Below are positions 1 to 64,000 of a stretch of DNA of 64,000 nucleotides, one piece after another; position 1 is the stretch's first letter; each line of letters begins with the position of its first letter. The position numbers and the translations under genes are program-made. The notes under the pieces are model-generated. The model did no database searches. It was not told where the DNA came from and was given only the letters and a program-made list of their open reading frames with translations. Source of the DNA: Eledone cirrhosa (Eukaryota); NCBI GenBank assembly GCA_964016885.1, contig OZ024741.1, positions 284,642,001 through 284,706,000 of the forward strand, read 5' to 3'.

Positions 1-3000
1 TAATAGAGCCAAACAAGGCATTTAGTCTTGGCTGCTGGAACGTACGGACGCTGCTTGACAGGGATTTCTTGGAGCGTCCTGAACGAAGGACAGCTCTTGT
101 TGCAAAGGAGCTTCGACGTTACGATCTTGACATCGTGGCCTTATCTGAGACGAGGTTAGCTGGAGATGGTCATCTTACAGAATTTTGTGGAGAATATACA
201 TTCTTCTGGAAAGGAAGAGATGAAGGAACCAGAAGAGAGGCTAGGGTAGGATTTGCTGTTAAGACTGTACTTGTGAATAAATTAGAAGAATTCCCAGTAG
301 GGATTAGTGAACGTCTTATGTCCATGAGAATTCCGCTGGACAAAGGAAGATATGCGACCCTGGTGAGTGTGTATGCTCCAACTATGAATTCTGTCAATGA
401 AGAAAAAGTGTTTTAAGAAATATCCCTCAGGCAGACAAAGTCATCGTGCTTGGTGACTTTAATGCTAGAGTGGGTAGGGATTTTAACACATGGAATGTAA
501 TCGGAAGGCATGGGGTGGGAAAGTGTAACAACAATGGTATGCTCCTGCTGCAGATGTGTGAGGAGCTGGATCTGTGTGTTACCAACACCATGTTCCAACA
601 AAAGAACAAATTCAAGACCACATGGATGCATCCTGCATCTAAGGAATGGCATCTTTTGGACTACGTCCTAGTCAGGATGCGTGACAGACAGGATGTGCAG
701 TGTGTTCGTGTTCTTCGTGGAGCTGAGTGCTGGACGGACCACCGCCTGGTACGCGCAAAAGTGAAACTAATCAATAAACGTAAAATCCGGGCTCCTGGTG
801 TTGCCCTGCCCAAAAGATTGAATGCTGCTCGTCTTAAGGATAAAAATGTGAAGAGGACATTGGAAGAAGAGATGCAGGCTGCAGATCTTGGTGAGGATTG
901 GCCGACCCTTAAAAAGTCGGTTTATGATGTAGGCAGGCGTGTTCTGGGATTGATGCAGAGAAAACATCAGGACTGGTTTAATGAGAATAATGTACATATA
1001 GAAGACTTGTTGGCTGATAAGAGGCGTGCTCTGTCATGCTACTTGACGGCAAAACCACAGGAGAGGAATACGTTGCATGAGGAACTCAAGGATGTAAAAT
1101 CACGTGTTAGGCGGAGTCTTTCTCAGATGAAGGATCAGTGGTGGAGTGAGAAGGCTGGTGAGATACAAACTGCGTCAGATTCCAATAACACAAAGCTGTT
1201 GTACAATCTCTTGCGTGAGGTTTATGGACCGTCTTCTTCTCTGGTGACACCGCTTCGCAGCAAGGATGGCAAAGAACTTCTTCGTGACTCACAAGGAATT
1301 CTACGAAGGTGGCGAGAGCACTTTGATGATCTTTTGAATCAGCCGTCTGTCGTCAGTGAAGATTTCCTCAATCTCATTCCAGAAAGTCCTGTGAAAGTAG
1401 CTCTCGCAGAACCTCCGACGCTTGTGGAGGTTGCAGTAGCTATTTCGAAGCTGAACAGTGGAAGATCTCCAGGTATGGATGGCATACATGCTGAGCTCCT
1501 ACAATATGGTGGTGAGAGACTCCTGCAACATCTTCACTCTTTGTTTGGCAGGATATGGGCTAATGAATCCGTACCTGAGGACTGGAGAGATGCAGTAATG
1601 GTGGTCTTGTACACGGGAAAGGGTAACAGGAATGATTGTGGGAACTACAGAGGTATATCATTGCTTTCTGTCGTAGGGAAAGTTTTATGTAGGGTGCTTC
1701 TGGACCGTCTGCTGACACACATTGCAGATTGTGTTATTCCTGAAAGTCAATCTGGTTTTCGTGCTGGACGCGGAACTACTGATATGATCTTCTCAGCTAG
1801 ACAGCTCCAGAAGAAGTGCATGGAACAAGGCATGGAACTGTAGCAGGTCTTTGTCGATCTGACAAAAGCTTTCGATACTGTTAACAGAGATGCATTATGG
1901 AAGGTTGTCCAGAAACTTGGTTGCCCTGATAAGTTCCTTGCTTTAGTTAGGTCTTTCCATGACGACATGAAGGCTTGGGTTAATGTCGGAGGTAACATGT
2001 CGGAGCCTATCTCAGTAAAAGATGGAGTGAAACAGGGGGATATTCCAGCACCGACTCTGTTTGCCATATACTTTGCAATGGTTTTCTGTATTGCATTCAG
2101 GAATTGCGAGCATGGTGTTTACATCCAATATCGAACCTCAGGCAGCATATTTAACATCAGGCGCTTTGCTGCAAAGACAAAAGTATTTACATCAATCATA
2201 AGAGACCTCTTGTATGCAGATGATTGCGATCTTGTAGCGCACACAGAGAGTGATATGCAGCACATTTTGAATGCATTTTCTGACGCTTGCACTGCCCTAG
2301 GATTGACTGTCAGTCTCAAGAAAACCGTCGTCATGTACCAACCTGCCCCTGGTAAGCAGTACACTGAACCAAATATCTATGTGTATGGTAAAAGACTTGG
2401 AGTGGTTGATCAGTTTGTCTACCTGGGAAGCACTGTCAATCTATACGGCAACCTTGACAGTGAAATCTCACTTAGGATTAGGAAAGCAAGTGATGCTTTC
2501 GGAAAGCTAGAAAGGCGACTCTGGGGTCGGCGAGACATATGCAAGAGGACAAAGGTAAAGGTGTACAAGGCATGTGTGCTCTCTTGTCTTCTTTATGCCT
2601 GCGAGACCTGGGTCACATATCGACACCACCTTAAGCAATTGGAGCGTTTCCATCAGATGTGTCTCAGACAGATCCATGGCGTTCACTGGAGGGACCACAT
2701 CAGTGATGTCGAGATTTTGGAAAGCTCTATGTGTGAAAGTATAGAAGCTCTTGTGTTTAAGCAACGACTCCGTTGGAGTGGTCACCTTGCCAGGATGAAG
2801 GATTCTAGAATACCAAAACAACTCTTTTATGGAGAGTTGGTTAAAGGAAAACGACCGCCACATAAACCAGAAAAGAGGTATAAGGATTCCTTGAAAGCCT
2901 CTCTGAAAGACGCTAACATCTCTGCTGATACATGGGAAAATATTGCTGCTGATCGTAATAAATGGAGAATGAGGGAAAAGTTGCCTTTGAGGCATCTTGA

Positions 3001-3250
3001 ATCGCATACGAGAAAGTAAAGCGGGATGTGAGGAAGGGCATTGCTGTTGCACTTCCAGACGGCGAGGGTCCTCCTATGGTGCTGACATGCAGCATCTGTG
3101 CGAGACTCTGCCTAAGCAAAGCTGGACTCGAAAGTCATCTTCGCAGTCATAAAGTAAGACCAGTGCCTGACTACCAGGCTGCTGTTGGAGATGCTACTCA
3201 TCATGCTTGCCAAACATGTGGTAGAGAATGTAAATCAGCAGGAGGGCACT
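1..3250 (+). mobile_element. RTE-clade LINE (APE endonuclease + RT + C2H2 zinc fingers), near full length but disrupted
   Basis: Motifs WNVRTL, ALSETR, LGDFNARVG, LDYVL, TDHRLV (APE); PGMDGI, YRGISLL, QSGFR, DLTKAFD, GVKQG, LYADD, YLGS (RT); CxxC..H...H fingers at 3028-3250. Contains stops and frameshifts; 3' end cut by another insertion. Confidence 0.95.
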
Positions 3251-3344: not shown

Positions 3345-5693
3345 TATTATTAGTTCTTACTTCCATCAAACAAAATCACAACGGGATGCAAACCCTCTAA
3401 ATACCACTGTAGCAAGCAACCATAGCAACGGCAGTAACAATAGAAATAACACTAGTATAAGTAATAACACCAGGGTTGTCAACCCGAACACCCAAAATCC
3501 TATATCCACCACACAGACTTCCGCATTGCATTATAACCAGCGGACTAACGCACATGATAATTGTAACTGTAGAGCTAATAGAACCTGCCCTTTAGATAAA
3601 AAAATGCCTAACCAAGGATGTCATATACTCATGCACAGTCACGACTAATAACGCTTCAGAAACCTATGTAGGCTCCACTTCTAACTGCTTCAAAATCAGA
3701 TATAACTCGCACATCCACTCGTTCAAAAAGCACAGCCTAGCCAACTCCACCTCACTTTCTAGCTACATACACTATCTAAAATCTAAAAATAAACCATACA
3801 CACTCAAATGGGAAGTGATAGGCAGCGCGACCTCGTACAAACCACCTAATAAATTCTGTAACCTCTGTATACTAGAGACACACAATATTATCTTCTCCAA
3901 CCGTGACCTACTTAACAAAAAATCTGAGGTGTTTGCAACTTGCCAGCACCGCCTCAGACATTCCTTCCAAAACTTTAAGCCCTATATATAGCAATGTCGG
4001 ACTGGAACCTAACACCACATCTAGCATCAAACACCAGAGACACACCCTATACTACATACCCAACACTAGCTGATCCTTTATAACACAAACAACGACATCC
4101 CTCCGGAACCCTTCGCAGGGAAAATACCCATTTATACCTCTACGGCAGCTGTGACAACATCCACCCACTTGAACGGCACTACACCGCTCTAAGGGTAATT
4201 TGAGCATGAATTGATCGGTTGGATAGTGTTGGGCAGAGGAAACACCTTCCTTAGACAGATGTAAAATGATTTAATCGAGTAGCGCTGTTGACCAGTAGGA
4301 CCGGGCTGCTGAGCGCAGTGAGTGAATGCAATGCAACTGCCGTGCGGGTTGTACGTATATGGAGGATCTGACGGTCAGAGAGGGGTCGCGAGGACTGCGG
4401 ATTGACCTTTGGCCTGCCTGGGGACGATTATCTTTCGACATCCAATGTAGCAAGCGATGACCCAGATCTTACCAGAGATCATTGGGTCCTGAAGCAATCC
4501 TGCAGTCACCGCGCCTGGTCATATGAGCAGACTACAACCACAGAGATCATTAATTTAGAATCCTCGCTCATCATCTATAATTTCCATTTGTAGCACCTTA
4601 AGATGGGTTAATCCACCATAATAATATGATCACCTTCAGCATAACTTAGTTAAACTACTCTATAGTTAATACACTTTATACTTTAAAAGTCTCTCTTGGA
4701 AGGTGCACTTCACCATAGAATTTAGGGTCTATATTGGGACACATTTTAATGGCTAGATATAGAAACCCCAGAGTTACCTCCCCGCATGCATTAACTCCCC
4801 TTAGCCACACACACACTTCCGGTATTCAATGGCGTTTCTCGAAACGTAACAACCTCCTGTATCGAACTAAAGAACACCAGACTACGATCTCTAACTGGAT
4901 TGTCGTGGATTATGTGAAAGGCATATAATCGAAATATACACTCCCCTGACCATGAAAATGCCGAAGTACATGAAATACTTGACATCCCTGCGCTGTGTAT
5001 CTCCAATACTTATAACACTTTTAACACTTTTAATGCTTGCACTATCTTTAATGCTTATAATATTTCTCCACACACAAACTATATCAATCATATAAAGATT
5101 TTGCCACCAGATCTACCAACCTAACACTCTTATTTACCTACCTAAGTGCCTCTACCACACATATCTCTCTGCCACACTATATAAACAAGACGCACATGCG
5201 TGCCACACATATAACATTTGCACTATATAACCACTTATCTTCATGTTGTACTTTAACCTATATCTTTGATTTTTGATTGTACCTATTAATATAAATGTAA
5301 TCTCGAAGTGTGTACTGCCACTCTAAATTCTGTAATGAATGTTGACCCACAATGTTTGAATATGTATCAATGTTTGAATATGTATTTGGTATGTCTCTCG
5401 GCTGAAAAGGAGGTCATATAACTGTCCATGCATTAATAAATTGCTTCGAAGAATCCAAACCTCGGTTTGGAGGAAACAGCTGTAAGCACAATAATGTTTT
5501 GAGCAGTTCTTTGATTCTTATATTTCATATAACTGCTCTGTAAATCATCTGATGTTTTTACATTGAGCTACTTAACTTACTGGTAATAAGGTAGTAATAC
5601 ATTACTGCCTACCACTATTTAGGGTGTGTGTAAAATACTTACAACTGCTTAAGGTTTTGTATTTGCATAACCATAAATAGTATAACTAATACT
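3345..5693 (+). mobile_element. 5'-truncated Penelope-like element: GIY-YIG endonuclease remnant, long 3' region and terminal repeat with HHR
   Basis: CNC..CPL linker, then after a frameshift YVGSTSNCFKIRYNSHIHSF..STSLS..W..CNLCILE..LN..E..C.H (about 3560-3990). Ends in (TA)n at 5693. 5329-5693 matches the 507-nt array at 56.6-58.8 kb. Confidence 0.8.
5442..5488 (+). ncRNA. Hammerhead ribozyme (variant core) in PLE terminal repeat
   Basis: TGCT-TCGAAGA-aTCCAAACC(tc)GGTTTGGAg-GAAA-CAGCTG-TA-AGCA. Confidence 0.65.
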
Positions 5694-5713
5694 ATATATA
5701 TATATATATATAT

Positions 5714-16842: not shown

Positions 16843-18407
16843 TACATACATACATACATACATACATACATACATACATACATACATACATACATACATA
16901 CATACATACTTACATGCATACATACATACATACATACATGATGGCTGCCCCCTCGTTATCGAGTATGGCCATTGCACGAGGAGAAAGAAAAAAAAAAAAA
17001 TAATAATAATAAATAAATAAATAAAAAAAAAAATAAATATATATATATATATATATATACATATACATACATATATATACACACACACGCACGCACATAC
17101 TCACACACATATACACACACACATACATTAATAACAATAATAATAATAATAATAACAACAATAATAATAACGACAACAACAATAATAATATACATATACA
17201 TATATATCTACACACACAGACACACACGATAGCAACTAACAGCGCTGCGATCGAATGTGGCTTTTTAGCCCAGCCAATGATCTAAAATGTCTTGCACAGA
17301 GTCGGCATCCAAAACATTCACTGGGAATAGTCGGCTGTGGTTGGAGTTCATGTACTTTTGCATGTCGCTTGAGCCCTCCTGCTGATTTACATTCTCTACC
17401 ACATGTTTGGCAAGCATGATGAGTAGCATCTATAACAGCAGCCTGGTAGTCAACCACTGGTCTTACTTTATGACTGCGAAGATGACTTTCGAGTCCAGCT
17501 TTGCTTAGGCAGAGTCTCGCACATACGCTGCATGTCAGCACCATAGGAGGACCCTCGCCGTCTGGAAGTGCAACAGCAATGCCCTTCCTCACATCCCGCT
17601 TTACTTTCTCGTATGCGATTCAAGATGCCTCAAAAGCAACTTTCCCTCATATACAGTCTTTCTCCATTTATTACGATCAGCAGCAACATTCTCCCATGTA
17701 TAAGCAGAGATGTTAGCGTCTTTCAGAGAGGCTTTCAAGGAATCCTTATACCTCTTTTTTGGTTTATGTGGCGGTCGTTTTCCTTTAACCAACTCTCCAT
17801 AAAAGAGTTGTTTTGGTATTCTAGAATCCTTCATCCTGGCAAGGTGACCACTCCAACGGAGTCGTTGCTTAAGCACAAAAGCTTCTATACTGTCACACAT
17901 AGAGCTTTCCAAAATCTCGACATCACTGATGTGGTCCCTCCAGTGAACGCCATGGATCCGTCTGAGACACATCTGATGGAAACGCTCCAATTGCTTAAGG
18001 TGGTGTCGATATGTGACCCAGGTCTCGCAGGCATAAAGAAGACAAGAGAGCACACATGCCCTGTACACCTTTACTTTTGTCCTCCTGCATATGTCTCGCC
18101 GACCCCAGAGTCGCCTTTCTAGCTTTCCGAAAGCATCACTTGCTTTCCTAATCCTAAGTGAGATTTCACTGTCAAGGTTGTTGTATCGATTGACAGTGCT
18201 TCCCAGGTAGACAAACTGATCAACCACACCAAGTCGTTTGCCATACACATAGATGTTTGGTTCAGTGTACTGCTTACCAGGGGCAGGTTGGTACATGACG
18301 GCGGTTTTCTTGAGACTGACAGTCAGACCTAGGGCAGTGCAAGCGTCTGAAAATGCATTCAAAATGTACTACATATCACTCTCTGTGTGCGCTACAAGAT
18401 CGCAATC
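16843..18407 (-). mobile_element. 5'-truncated RTE LINE of the same family as 1-3250, with three C2H2 fingers; 3' hairpin tail at 16937-16980 separated by microsatellites; (ATGT)n tail
   Basis: ORFs 17601-18362 and 17236-17592 are nearly identical to 1967-3250; tail GGCCATACTCGATAACGAGGGGGCAGCCATC. Confidence 0.93.
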
Positions 18408-18523
18408 ATACATACATACATACATACATACATACATACATACATACATACATACATACATACATACATACATACATACATACATACATACATACATACA
18501 TACATACATACATACATACATAC

Positions 18524-33755: not shown

Positions 33756-34515
33756 TTAATACATTAACAGAGAAAGCATTAAACGATACTCCGACCGACT
33801 CCCATCTCACTTAACAAACATTAGGATATACCTGAGTATAATCCCAATTATATGTTTCTAGTGCTAACTATATTGTATTTTGTGGATAGCCGGTTGTATT
33901 ATTTTATATGAGACATAATTAAATAAATATCTCTTTCCATACGATCGTTTCGTTATAAGTTTTCTACAAATTGGGAAAATAATGTCCAGGTTATGTAGAA
34001 GCTTGCATATAGTCCATAGGTATACATACAAGTGGATACTTATAATTCATCAGTGGATGCCCACATATTTATTTATTTATTTAGTTATTCCTGCTTCCTA
34101 ACTACTGCTCGTATCTGTGTATACATTTTTGAGTGCATATATATCTGTGTATATGTATGTGTATGTATTTATGTTCCTGTAGACGCAAATACGCTTATGT
34201 GAGAAAGTGTACGTCTACGTACTTTTTAGTATATGCGCGTAGTTGAGTGTGTGTATGTTTACGTTCTGGATATTTATATTTTTATATATATATTTTTTAT
34301 TTTTTTCCCCTATTTCCTTTTCGCCCGTTTTTTTCAGCCTTACTTTCATATTTCCTAAATTTTGTTTTCAAATCCATATTTAATAAATACACCATGTTTT
34401 TTTAATTCATTCTGACGACTGAAGACAGACACAACATCTGTCTTCAAGAAACCACTGGTAAATGAAATAATAATCTTATGTTGTTTATTACATAACATAA
34501 TTAATAAATAAATAA

Positions 34516-40700: not shown

Positions 40701-40747
40701 TTTCCTGATGATTTCCTTCGAATGAAACAGTTCTAGTCATGTAGAAG
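40701..40747 (+). ncRNA. Hammerhead ribozyme, slightly decayed; related fragments at 33600-33640(-) and 45454-45507
   Basis: TTTC-CTGATGA-tTTC(cttc)GAAt-GAAA-CAG(..)aTG-TA-GAAG; the 33.6 kb copy restores CAG/CTG in stem III. Confidence 0.65.
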
Positions 40748-44100: not shown

Positions 44101-44143
44101 GTAATCCTGATGATTTCTAATAAGAATGAAACGCGTAGGTTAC
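44101..44143 (+). ncRNA. Minimal hammerhead ribozyme with canonical core
   Basis: GTAATC-CTGATGA-tTTCT(aata)AGAAt-GAAA-CGCG-TA-GGTTAC. Confidence 0.85.
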
Positions 44144-56159: not shown

Positions 56160-56589
56160 TTCTGTGTGTGTGTGTGGGGGTGTGTGTGGTATGTGTTTGT
56201 GTGGTGTGTGTGTGTGTGTGTGTGTGTGTGTCTGTGTGTACAAACGATTGAAAAGCGAGCGCAATCTACGTAGAAGTTGAATATATTTGTATTAACAGTT
56301 TGACGAGAGATTTCGTTAGACTTAAATCTGTCTAACTCTTCTGACGCGTCCTAAATAAGACGGGATTTGATACTAACTAGCACATTTCCATTCACAATTC
56401 GCAGAGAAATTCCACGGTAACCGTTGTAGTCAACACAATTTTGACTGAGAGTCCTTGAATCAACTCTGCCCTTCTCTTAAATTTGCTGCCGCTGTGCCTT
56501 GATTACATATCAATATGAAAACATAGTTATAGTCTGTGCTGTGGCCCTCGCAGAGCATTAGGCTTCAATATATATATATATATATATAT

Positions 56590-58757
56590 GAAATATGAAA
56601 TATAAGAATCAAAGAACTGTTCAAAACATTATTGTGCTTACAGCTGTTTCCTCCAAACCGAGGTTTGGATTCTTCGGAGCAATTTATTAATGCATGGACA
56701 GTTATATGACCTCCTTTTCAGCCGAGAGACATACCAAATACATATTCAAACATTGATACATATTCAAACATTGTGGGTCAACATTCATTACAGAAATGAA
56801 TTTACACTGTTGATCAGCAATTTCTCATATGTATTCCTGGATGGTATTGGTATGTTCTTGGTTGACATGGGGAGTTGGTCTTTGATTAGCATATTGGCAA
56901 TATTATATGTCAGCTCAACGATATGGAGCAGTTAATAGTATTAGTTATACTATTTATGGTTATGTAAACACAAAACCTTAAGCAGTTGTAAGTATTTTAC
57001 ACACACCCTAAATAGTGGTAGGCAGTAATGTATTACTACCTTATTACCAGTAAGTTAAGTAGCTCAATGTAAAAACATCAGATGATTTACAGAGCAGTTA
57101 TATGAAATATAAGAATCAAAGAACTGTTCAAAACATTATTGTGCTTACAGCTGTTTCCTCCAAACCGAGGTTTGGATTCTTCGGAGCAATTTATTAATGC
57201 ATGGACAGTTATATGACCTCCTTTTCAGCCGAGAGACATACCAAATACATATTCAAACATTGATACATATTCAAACATTGTGGGTCAACATTCATTACAG
57301 AAATGAATTTACACTGTTGATCAGCAATTTCTCATATGTATTCCTGGATGGTATTGGTATGTTCTTGGTTGACATGGGGAGTTGGTCTTTGATTAGCATA
57401 TTGGCAATATTATATGTCAGCTCAACGATATGGAGCAGTTAATAGTATTAGTTATACTATTTATGGTTATGTAAACACAAAACCTTAAGCAGTTGTAAGT
57501 ATTTTACACACACCCTAAATAGTGGTAGGCAGTAATGTATTACTACCTTATTACCAGTAAGTTAAGTAGCTCAATGTAAAAACATCAGATGATTTACAGA
57601 GCAGTTATATGAAATATAAGAATCAAAGAACTGTTCAAAACATTATTGTGCTTACAGCTGTTTCCTCCAAACCGAGGTTTGGATTCTTCGGAGCAATTTA
57701 TTAATGCATGGACAGTTATATGACCTCCTTTTCAGCCGAGAGACATACCAAATACATATTCAAACATTGATACATATTCAAACATTGTGGGTCAACATTC
57801 ATTACAGAAATGAATTTACACTGTTGATCAGCAATTTCTCATATGTATTCCTGGATGGTATTGGTATGTTCTTGGTTGACATTTCTGTAATGAATGTTGA
57901 CCCACAATGTTTGAATATGTATCAATGTTTGAATATGTATTTGGTATGTCTCTCGGCTGAAAAGGAGGTCATATAACTGTCCATGCATTAATAAATTGCT
58001 CCGAAGAATCCAAACCTCGGTTTGGAGGAAACAGCTGTAAGCACAATAATGTTTTGAACAGTTCTTTGATTCTTATATTTCATATAACTGCTCTGTAAAT
58101 CATCTGATGTTTTTACATTGAGCTACTTAACTTACTGGTAATAAGGTAGTAATACATTACTGCCTACCACTATTTAGGGTGTGTGTAAAATACTTACAAC
58201 TGCTTAAGGTTTTGTGTTTACATAACCATAAATAGTATAACTAATACTATTAACTGCTCCATATCGTTGAGCTGACATATAATATTGCCAATATGCTAAT
58301 CAAAGACCAACTCCCCATGTCAACCAAGAACATACCAATACCATCCAGGAATACATATGAGAAATTGCTGATCAACAGTGTAAATTCATTTCTGTAATGA
58401 ATGTTGACCCACAATGTTTGAATATGTATCAATGTTTGAATATGTATTTGGTATGTCTCTCGGCTGAAAAGGAGGTCATATAACTGTCCATGCATTAATA
58501 AATTGCTCCGAAGAATCCAAACCTCGGTTTGGAGGAAACAGCTGTAAGCACAATAATGTTTTGAACAGTTCTTTGATTCTTATATTTCATATAACTGCTC
58601 TGTAAATCATCTGATGTTTTTACATTGAACTACTTAACTTACTGGTAATAAGGTAGTAATACATTACTGCCTACCACTATTTAGGGTGTGTGTAAAATAC
58701 TTACAACTGCTTAAGGTTTTGTGTTTACATAACCATAAATAGTATAACTAATACTAT
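56590..58757. mobile_element. Divergent tandem array of a 507-nt PLE-derived, HHR-bearing monomer (about 2.5 copies minus, about 1.7 copies plus) inside (TA)n
   Basis: Period 507 (56690/57197/57704); inversion junction at 57881-57882; HHRs at 56635-56681, 57142-57188, 57649-57695 (-) and 57997-58043, 58504-58550 (+). Confidence 0.92.
58293..58397 (+). pseudogene. Truncated N-terminus of a PLE ORF within the 507-nt monomer (34 aa)
   Basis: MLIKDQLPMSTKNIPIPSRNTYEKLLINSVNSFL*; resembles the S.KNIP.P...Y...LI...F start of GIY-YIG PLE proteins (recalled motif, not searched). Confidence 0.6.
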
Positions 58758-59040
58758 ATATATATATATATTTATATATCTGTGTGGGTGTACGTATGAA
58801 GTAAGTAAGTTAGCGAGCATAAGGGACAAATAGGCGCACATTTTCCCAGGTTGATTGGTATAATATGAAGCATTTAATTAGTTGGAGTTGTCACACACAT
58901 TGCATGCATGGTCCCGTAACACCTGAGGGAATCGAAGGAATGCCATATTGACTCACGTTTTTAGGCATTTTAAATTTGGCTAAGCCCATCCCTCTCCAGG
59001 TCTGCTGAATACAGCAGCTTTCTTCCAGAGAAGGATAGAA

Positions 59041-63769: not shown

Positions 63770-63911
63770 AAATCAAGGGAGTGTAAACACAGAAAATATC
63801 TTAAAAAATAATAACTTGCTATTGAACCACAGTGGCATACGGACTATACTTGTATCCCTGTATGTATTAATTACATATAGGACACATACTTTTATTATAT
63901 ATATATATTTC

Positions 63912-64000
63912 TCTTACTGGTAATAGGGTAGTAGGAAATTACTGACCTTTCCTGTTTATAGTTGTTTATACTATATACATAACTATAAATAGTATTATTA
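63912..64000 (+). mobile_element. Diverged relative of the PLE terminal-repeat tail seen at 5575-5693 and in the 507-nt unit
   Basis: CTTACTGGTAATAGGGTAGTA..ATTACTG..CATAACTATAAATAGTAT. Confidence 0.6.

Follow-up and report, generated by a model that had tools for sequence, protein, structure and literature searches.

How an array of 507-nt units with one hammerhead-like motif per unit came to lie in the genome of Eledone cirrhosa, and whether it represents a retrozyme arising from an autonomous PLE, as an earlier reading of the letters (the sequence-only reading) had claimed, is the question raised by this locus. The source is assembly GCA_964016885.1, contig OZ024741.1, positions 284,642,001-284,706,000 of the forward strand; this whole stretch of 64,000 nt is called the window here, and genome searches covered the 3.0-Gb assembly. 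Positions 56593-58757 of the window form a two-armed, head-to-head array of the 507-nt unit, with a minus arm of 1290 nt and a plus arm of 878 nt. The units are near-identical, with a single substitution in 2168 nt (at 58629, in the right arm). The period is 507. The left arm contains three consecutive hammerhead-like motifs and the right arm two, and this total of five was reached in 0 of 100 shuffles. The following parts could be identified:

56568..56592, no strand: (TA)n target on the left side; the terminal bases of the arm are repeated over 7 nt at 56586-56592
56593..57882, minus strand: left arm, 1290 nt, made of unit positions 435-507 and two full units and closed by 1-203/204, the short 3' end of the family; no differences from the reference unit
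57880..57882, no strand: head-to-head joint of the arms, a 3-nt overlap; on the minus strand the ORF start codon, at which the left arm begins exactly, and on the plus strand the final 3 nt before a junction
57880..58757, plus strand: right arm, 878 nt; it runs through the 3-nt overlap and one full unit to 1-368, the long 3' end of the family; one substitution
57883..58389, plus strand: 507-nt unit (33.5% G+C); terminal repeat 1-368, leader 369-434, ORF start 435-507
58758..58770, no strand: (TA)n target at the right end

The existence of the array is taken from the assembly. A comparison of the window with Rfam at gathering thresholds gave no match. A sequencing-run index listed no RNA run, and its best run contained 0.74 of the query words; contigs of six runs, aligned to a parent copy, displayed only the full-unit return joint and none from 507 to 1, a result that does not speak for absence, as contigs drop rare variants and two of the runs covered little.

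The composition of the unit points to its origin. Unit positions 1-368 (57883-58250) correspond to 5328-5695 of the window at 98.9% identity, with four substitutions, which bears out the match of about 365 nt to 5329-5693 noticed in the sequence-only reading. The remainder of the unit consists of a leader and a truncated coding start:

58251..58389, plus strand: 139-nt piece; the parent leader (66 nt) and the first 73 coding bases; absent from the window's other copy
58317..58397, plus strand: 26-aa ORF stub, corresponding to the N-terminus of a PLE protein of the Hydra clade; ATG at 58317, stop at 58395-58397 across the junction

The frame from the ATG at 58317 reads MSTKNIPIPSRNTYEKLLINSVNSFL, terminating at 58395-58397 past the junction, and this 26-aa stub matches a Hydra-type N-terminal profile with an E-value of 1.5e-9. 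It is the only coding capacity left in the array unit, RT and nuclease being gone. A search of the genome with 58251-58389 gave 481 candidates, and the 40 matches that were scored (40/40) are all 100% identical. Thirty loci were fetched for this piece, three of which were the array itself; the others, 27 of 27, all outside the window, run into the parent ORF, and this extension of genome matches of about 58250-58390 into a PLE ORF is what the sequence-only reading had named as the check on its proposal. The monomer can thus be described, as proposed there, as a PLE collapsed by internal deletion, with terminal repeat, hammerhead-like motif and the first 73 coding bases retained and about 3.67 kb lost. 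Similarly, the extension of the 139-nt piece into the parent ORF supports the view that terminal repeat plus ORF start were fused to the next terminal repeat, with removal of RT and endonuclease.

The parent ORF comprises 811 aa from the same ATG as the stub, is complete in 11 of 14 long loci, and lies in a unit of 4173-4208 bp with a 3' region of 1.3 kb. It is a single ORF with RT, including a YRDD motif, plus GIY-YIG at the C-terminus, in which the Hydra motifs RWR, DKT, CNCRANRTC, CNLC and CQH could be read. Comparison of this ORF with Pfam gave neither an RT nor a GIY-YIG match, and comparison with PDB by sequence gave no match; 96 of its 99 homologues at E<=1e-10 contain Y.DD, and one matches Pfam RVT_1. 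A K[ND][IV]P motif is present within the first 80 residues of 70 of these 99 homologues, and the KNIP-type ORF start named in the sequence-only reading is confirmed by them and by Hydra-1_Obim (Craig 2021 supplement). These motifs, together with a likeness by eye to the start of Hydra-1_Obim, suggest that the parent is a Hydra-clade PLE; Naiad was dropped as parent because the nuclease is C-terminal. In 28 of 29 other GIY-YIG loci the same 3' region runs into the terminal repeat, and this boundary has 1441 exact matches, so that 5329-5693 does not behave as an insertion independent of the upstream GIY-YIG, a possibility that had been raised against the proposal.

Parent copies at different loci diverge by about 8 (7.8) substitutions per kb, suggesting that the family is young, and members with intact ORFs are present at 99-100% identity to the array unit. 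One of these, L068, is more closely related than the window's copy: its ORF is intact, and over 1-204 and 189-507 it does not differ from the unit; since it has no 5' hammerhead, it is more likely a sibling than the donor. Residues ~480-660 of the ORF in L068 form a long asparagine-rich stretch between RT and nuclease, and the protein is about 100 aa longer than most homologues; N-rich inserts have been described in rotifer PLEs (PMC3846280). An older sister Hydra family (L088:6057-6828, L104-L133) gave 3127 candidates that are about 96% alike. Its terminal repeat is ~77% identical to that of the parent, with equivalent 3' ends and the same altered hammerhead core, and no short tandem was found in 30 of its loci. 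A short piece between TA runs at 63910-64000 of the window looks by eye like the 3' portion of a terminal repeat of the sister type that has lost an internal stretch; it was not reported by BLAST.

The window contains a further copy of the parent family, upstream of the array:

3349..5695, plus strand: 5'-truncated sibling copy of the parent family, 98.1% identical to a full copy; ORF end, 1.3-kb 3' region, terminal repeat, then (TA)n
3560..3991, plus strand: within the sibling copy, the CxCx5C linker and the GIY-YIG nuclease; frameshift near 3600; Pfam GIY-YIG only at E 0.022, below the cut-off
5328..5695, plus strand: the sibling copy's terminal repeat; four substitutions relative to the array unit, one in the hammerhead core

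The claim that a parent-type element is present in the same window is correct as to the family, not as to the parent copy itself, as this copy is 5'-truncated, frameshifted and devoid of the 139-nt piece. It was also rejected as the donor: 4 of 368 sites differ, including the first hammerhead core base, it has no leader, and the frameshift precedes the nuclease. A sibling within 53 kb would be expected by chance in about 5% of cases, by hand arithmetic from 65 clusters in 144 Mb among the listed sites.

The deletion can be placed to the base at the point where unit position 507 is joined to unit position 1, which occurs four times in the array:

58389..58390, plus strand: collapse junction, at which unit position 507 meets unit position 1; 2-nt TT overlap; ~3.67 kb of the parent missing
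57809..57810, minus strand: collapse junction, first pass of the left arm; exact match
57302..57303, minus strand: collapse junction, second pass of the left arm; exact match
56795..56796, minus strand: collapse junction, third pass of the left arm; exact match

These four are the only matches to the junction in 3.0 Gb, also with two mismatches allowed, and its restriction to the array locus indicates one event rather than a family. The unbroken donor side has 177 exact matches in the genome, and the unbroken acceptor side 1441. The TAAATTC shared between 58381 and 5324 is indeed present at these positions; as the point of rejoining, however, it did not hold, since the crossover sits 5 nt away in the TT overlap and a crossover in the 7-mer would yield a unit of 502 nt. 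A common word of at least 7 nt is found in two 20-nt windows for 1.8% of random position pairs in the unit, and the 7-mer beside the junction may have helped alignment. Splicing and back-splicing were also rejected as origin of the junction, as no GT follows the donor and no AG precedes the acceptor on either strand. Among the listed read-through copies (100 of 132), and likewise, judged by eye, among the listed copies with the array's allele (100 of 105), the short-period spacing is unique to the array locus, and same-strand neighbours among the listed hammerhead sites (100 of 2148) are about 4.2 kb apart in nine of nine pairs. As spacing was read from the listed places, other collapses may exist elsewhere; the array is one of 90 listed loci bearing the leader.

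The five hammerhead-like motifs of the array are spaced by 507 nt:

58001..58039, plus strand: type I hammerhead-like motif, with U4->C in its core, a stem II of 7 bp and a helix III that is palindromic; cleavage predicted after 58039 (unit position 157)
58508..58546, plus strand: second copy of the motif in the right arm, found by pattern
57653..57691, minus strand: hammerhead-like motif of the left arm, found by pattern
57146..57184, minus strand: hammerhead-like motif of the left arm, found by pattern
56639..56677, minus strand: hammerhead-like motif of the left arm, found by pattern

The motif consists of a helix I of 4 bp, a stem II of 7 bp carrying one additional base to either side, and a helix III that is complementary to itself. 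It departs from the canonical type I core and loop-loop contacts, in that U4 is C and the base of stem II is unpaired, and in an unconstrained fold of the unit helix I is absent and the active shape is not formed. The motif of the sister family has the same core, with the helix III palindrome changed on both sides and stem II preserved by G-U pairing; related motifs with a canonical core have the same stem II. PLE hammerheads of this build are thought to act as dimers (PMC4209133). Those listed for Hydra PLEs in the supplement of Craig et al. 2021 (PMC8557442) are of the same build, and none of the listed ones has U4->C. Self-cleavage of a transcript of the unit is a prediction, made from the conserved structure.

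The mode of insertion of the array is that of the parent family. In a survey of the ends of 34 parent loci, 11 of which displayed one end or none, all 23 loci in which the two outer ends are both visible pair an end near unit 204 with one at 368, and parent insertions are head to head in 26 of 26 opposite-strand neighbour pairs among the listed sites. The array has the identical pair of ends (204, 368), a (TA)n target and a head-to-head joint with a 3-nt overlap. From these parent-type ends, target and joint we infer the action of the enzyme, and the array would thus have been inserted by an autonomous retroelement. Segments that recur inside a parent insertion differ by 1.5-2.0 substitutions per kb, compared with 7.8 between loci (14 loci; pairs are not independent), and 21 of 27 parent copies read through the predicted ribozyme cut site with no stop there. 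The sharing of variants within loci and the read-through fit a circle, and also an uncut tandem transcript. The last 7-8 nt of the short 3' end are repeated before the (TA)n in the array (56586-56599) and in L072, L084, L085, L087, L090 and L103. This repeat is present in five of 11 loci of the array's sub-lineage versus one of 17 others (Fisher p 0.022, post hoc), and its form resembles a telomerase-like realignment at the start of copying.

Any explanation has to account for what the locus displays directly: the descent of the unit from the parent, the junction itself, its restriction to one locus, two arms that end at the two 3' ends fixed in the parent family, and a junction that is identical in both arms. 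As the junction is found in both arms, and three times in one of them, the template must already have borne it and must have been passed repeatedly; a later deletion in one DNA copy cannot produce the array. It is unlikely that an intact template was skipped anew in each pass, as 177 copies run across the site with no skip. We consider it very probable that the unit derives from this PLE and was inserted by PLE machinery from a junction-bearing template. The explanation towards which we lean is a single young insertion of a 507-nt deletion derivative of an abundant PLE, copied repeatedly into a (TA)n site, starting at both ends of the cut, by the parent RT-endonuclease from one short RNA, probably a circle. 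That the template was a circle of 507 nt, most simply derived from a deleted donor copy that is absent in the assembly, is in our estimate somewhat on the probable side. The likelihoods given for this and the other explanations are a matter of judgement and were not computed.

The preferred course of events would begin with a skip of 3.67 kb at the 2-nt overlap, probably a template jump in an earlier round of reverse transcription, giving a copy with two hammerheads 507 nt apart. Such a copy is absent from the assembly, in which no donor with a single junction was found, so this step is unseen. In two of 20 parent loci (L092 and L099) a jump or internal deletion is found near the 5' end of an arm, and these jumps count in favour of a skip of this type. 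The transcript of the donor would subsequently be cut at both hammerheads and closed to a circle of 507 nt, retaining both start sites for reverse transcription, at unit positions 204 and 368. The parent protein, acting in trans, would then prime at both sites and go around the circle about 2.5 and 1.7 times, after which the two cDNA ends would join via the 3-nt overlap. A circle model has been proposed in PMC4209133 and PMC7229834. What counts against a circle is that the right arm ends 3 nt past a junction, a coincidence of about 1-3% if the circle closed at the ribozyme site, and this end is easier to explain if the junction was a physical RNA end. The U4->C core, unlike the listed Hydra hammerheads, and the freely folded unit without helix I also count against it, as does the finding that insertion by the one PLE examined in vitro did not require cleavage (PMC11167929). 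It is quite possible, if short of probable, that one step at the RNA level was sufficient, in which a fragment or circle of active PLE RNA was copied, with no DNA donor, by a precisely realigning telomerase-related RT into a founder array with five ribozymes.

Other explanations differ in the nature of the template. A linear fragment of parent RNA, extending from unit position 1 to about 509, could have been copied into the multimer in a single step by a telomerase-related RT that realigned the 5' end to the 3' end via the 2-nt overlap in each pass, requiring neither a circle nor a DNA donor. This would account for the missing donor, the single locus, the homology at and beside the junction and the end of the right arm just past a junction, and the 7-8-nt end repeats (five of 11 versus one of 17, post hoc) suggest an RT capable of realigning. 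Yet it requires four identical jumps with no base gained or lost, and the 27 parent copies show no preference for unit position 1 as their 5' end, so that the fragment would be an accident; we consider it unlikely. The two-armed anatomy and the identical junctions would equally be expected if the unseen donor was a tandem DNA array, formed by slippage or unequal exchange, of which an uncut read-through transcript was inserted by the parent protein, with no role for the ribozyme. Local DNA amplification is preferred by Li et al. 2026 for retrozyme multimers, and cleavage was not required for PLE insertion in vitro (PMC11167929). The price of this explanation, which seems improbable to us, is a vanished donor with at least three junctions, absent from the assembly, while no other short-period array occurs among the listed read-through copies (100 of 132) or those with the array's allele (100 of 105).

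That a parent insertion with two arms underwent rearrangement of its DNA in place, or that the array is an artefact of assembly, is in our view very improbable. Palindromes are unstable and hard to assemble, and the array is known from the assembly alone. Problems with PLE assembly have also been reported (PMC8557442). A rearrangement, however, would have had to form the identical new junction in both arms, and a fold-back artefact would not give the unequal ends (204/368), unmirrored flanks, private substitution and 7-nt end repeat observed here; moreover, head-to-head pairs are the norm in the parent family (26/26 opposite-strand neighbours among the listed sites). Finally, the unit might belong to an established, amplified retrozyme family, given the ~142,000 matches to a canonical hammerhead pattern in the genome (~11,000 in a reversed control) and its short arrays of 311 and 466-467 bp. 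With the junction at one locus only, and with 311- and 466/467-bp arrays that have neither a remnant of a Hydra ORF start nor similarity to the parent unit (8 loci), this can practically be dismissed.

The canonical hammerhead pattern is found genome-wide (~142,000 matches versus ~11,000 in the reversed control), and short tandem hammerhead arrays of 311 bp and 466/467 bp are present, in which no Hydra ORF-start match or sequence link to the parent was found (8 loci including both kinds of array); the collapse route is thus not shown for successful families. A tandem repeat of 403 bp with 2.6 copies (L135:1957-3017) adjoins a 466-bp hammerhead array. In the window, further hammerhead motif sites lie at 34419-34460, 40705-40732 and 44107-44141. 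A decayed LINE at 1-3247, which we take to be RTE-like, has remnants of AP-endonuclease and RT and a C-terminal zinc finger, and a second partial LINE copy (96%) is found on the opposite strand at 17373-18409.

Compared with Hydra-clade PLEs as described by Craig et al. 2021 (PMC8557442), the parent has in common the C-terminal GIY-YIG, RW(K/R), DKT, the CxCx5C linker, CxxC and CxH beside nuclease E and N, the (TA)n target, the extra bases of stem II and the KNIP-type start, as well as terminal repeats in partial tandems and an inverted 5' arm. It departs from them in its length (4.17-4.21 kb versus under ~3 kb, where 'generally short' makes this a departure rather than an exclusion), its 1.3-kb 3' region and the U4->C core. 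The two 3' ends of the parent, 164 nt apart, also differ from the 30-40-bp tail described for PLEs. A biochemical counterpart is Poseidon of Anolis, PAc (Frangieh et al. 2024, PMC11167929), the protein of which cuts and extends both DNA strands in vitro. As supposed for the array, two internal start sites of reverse transcription mark the genomic ends and both strands are cut and extended, and the RNA that surrounds terminal repeat and ORF start is a sufficient template; unlike the array, PAc belongs to another clade, and its start sites lie inside the ORF at 30-40 nt from each other, whereas both ends of the array are upstream of the ORF, with 164 nt between them. Insertion by PAc in vitro did not depend on cleavage, and none of the reads started from the cut site (PMC11167929). 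By analogy, the two-armed ends of the array would fit the PAc finding of two-strand extension from two internal RNA sites.

Non-autonomous tandem derivatives of PLEs are already known, among them Chlamys PLEs such as MRC1 (PMC8557442, PMC9940879). Unlike the array, these form active families that are already established; they belong to another clade and mostly lack canonical hammerheads, and no birth junction for them is given in the accessible text of these two papers. Internally deleted Penelope copies of Adineta vaga (PMC3846280) share with the array deletions bounded by microhomology and an inverted 5' arm overlapping the direct arm; they are described as disabled single copies and not as short units multimerised in one insertion. 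In the literature covered, no title or abstract start presents a base-resolved birth junction passed repeatedly in one insertion; most subscription papers lie outside this coverage, and the supplements of Li et al. may hold closer cases.

Metazoan retrozymes have been proposed to be moved by PLEs through RNA circles (Cervera and de la Pena 2020, PMC7229834). The case for a PLE origin of retrozymes has been made in a preprint (Li, Clavereau and Pollet 2026, 10.64898/2026.07.22.740005) on the grounds of co-occurrence, homology of the terminal repeats and a tree; there, a homology search and the tree tie 24 of 57 Xenopus retrozyme families to the terminal repeat of a PLE. To this proposal of a PLE origin the present locus adds a genome-unique junction passed four times in one insertion, together with a near-identical parent with an intact ORF. 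The unique junction serves as a tag for repeated copying of one short template, which ordinary tandem PLE copies cannot reveal. The array also defines a minimal mobilisable unit, consisting of terminal repeat, ribozyme and two start sites, and names a candidate enzyme; if its birth was at the RNA level, the intact 811-aa Hydra protein and the 507-nt RNA would form a natural pair, matched to each other, with which rolling reverse transcription of ribozyme circles could be tested. Births of such arrays appear to be rare (one of 90 listed leader-bearing loci) and need not spread.

With the non-LTR retrozymes the array shares a short, low-GC tandem unit, one type I hammerhead-like motif per unit, the lack of a usable ORF and kinship to a PLE terminal repeat. 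It is unlike them in its confinement to one locus, in its 507-nt unit (versus ~170-400 in the account of Cervera and 51-972 in that of Li), and in having a PLE-type motif with altered core, a coding stub, a parent at 99-100% identity and a base-resolved junction. A retrozyme would form a dispersed multicopy family, and the array occupies one locus in 3.0 Gb; because of this and of the non-canonical core it is called a founder here and not a member of the retrozymes. Of the original claim of a retrozyme arising from an autonomous PLE, the founder event thus stands, whereas an established retrozyme does not, the junction being present at one locus and two established families sampled here showing no link to the parent. 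The product is of non-LTR retrozyme build but has no daughter copy in the assembly, and it likely shows a retrozyme at birth rather than an established family.
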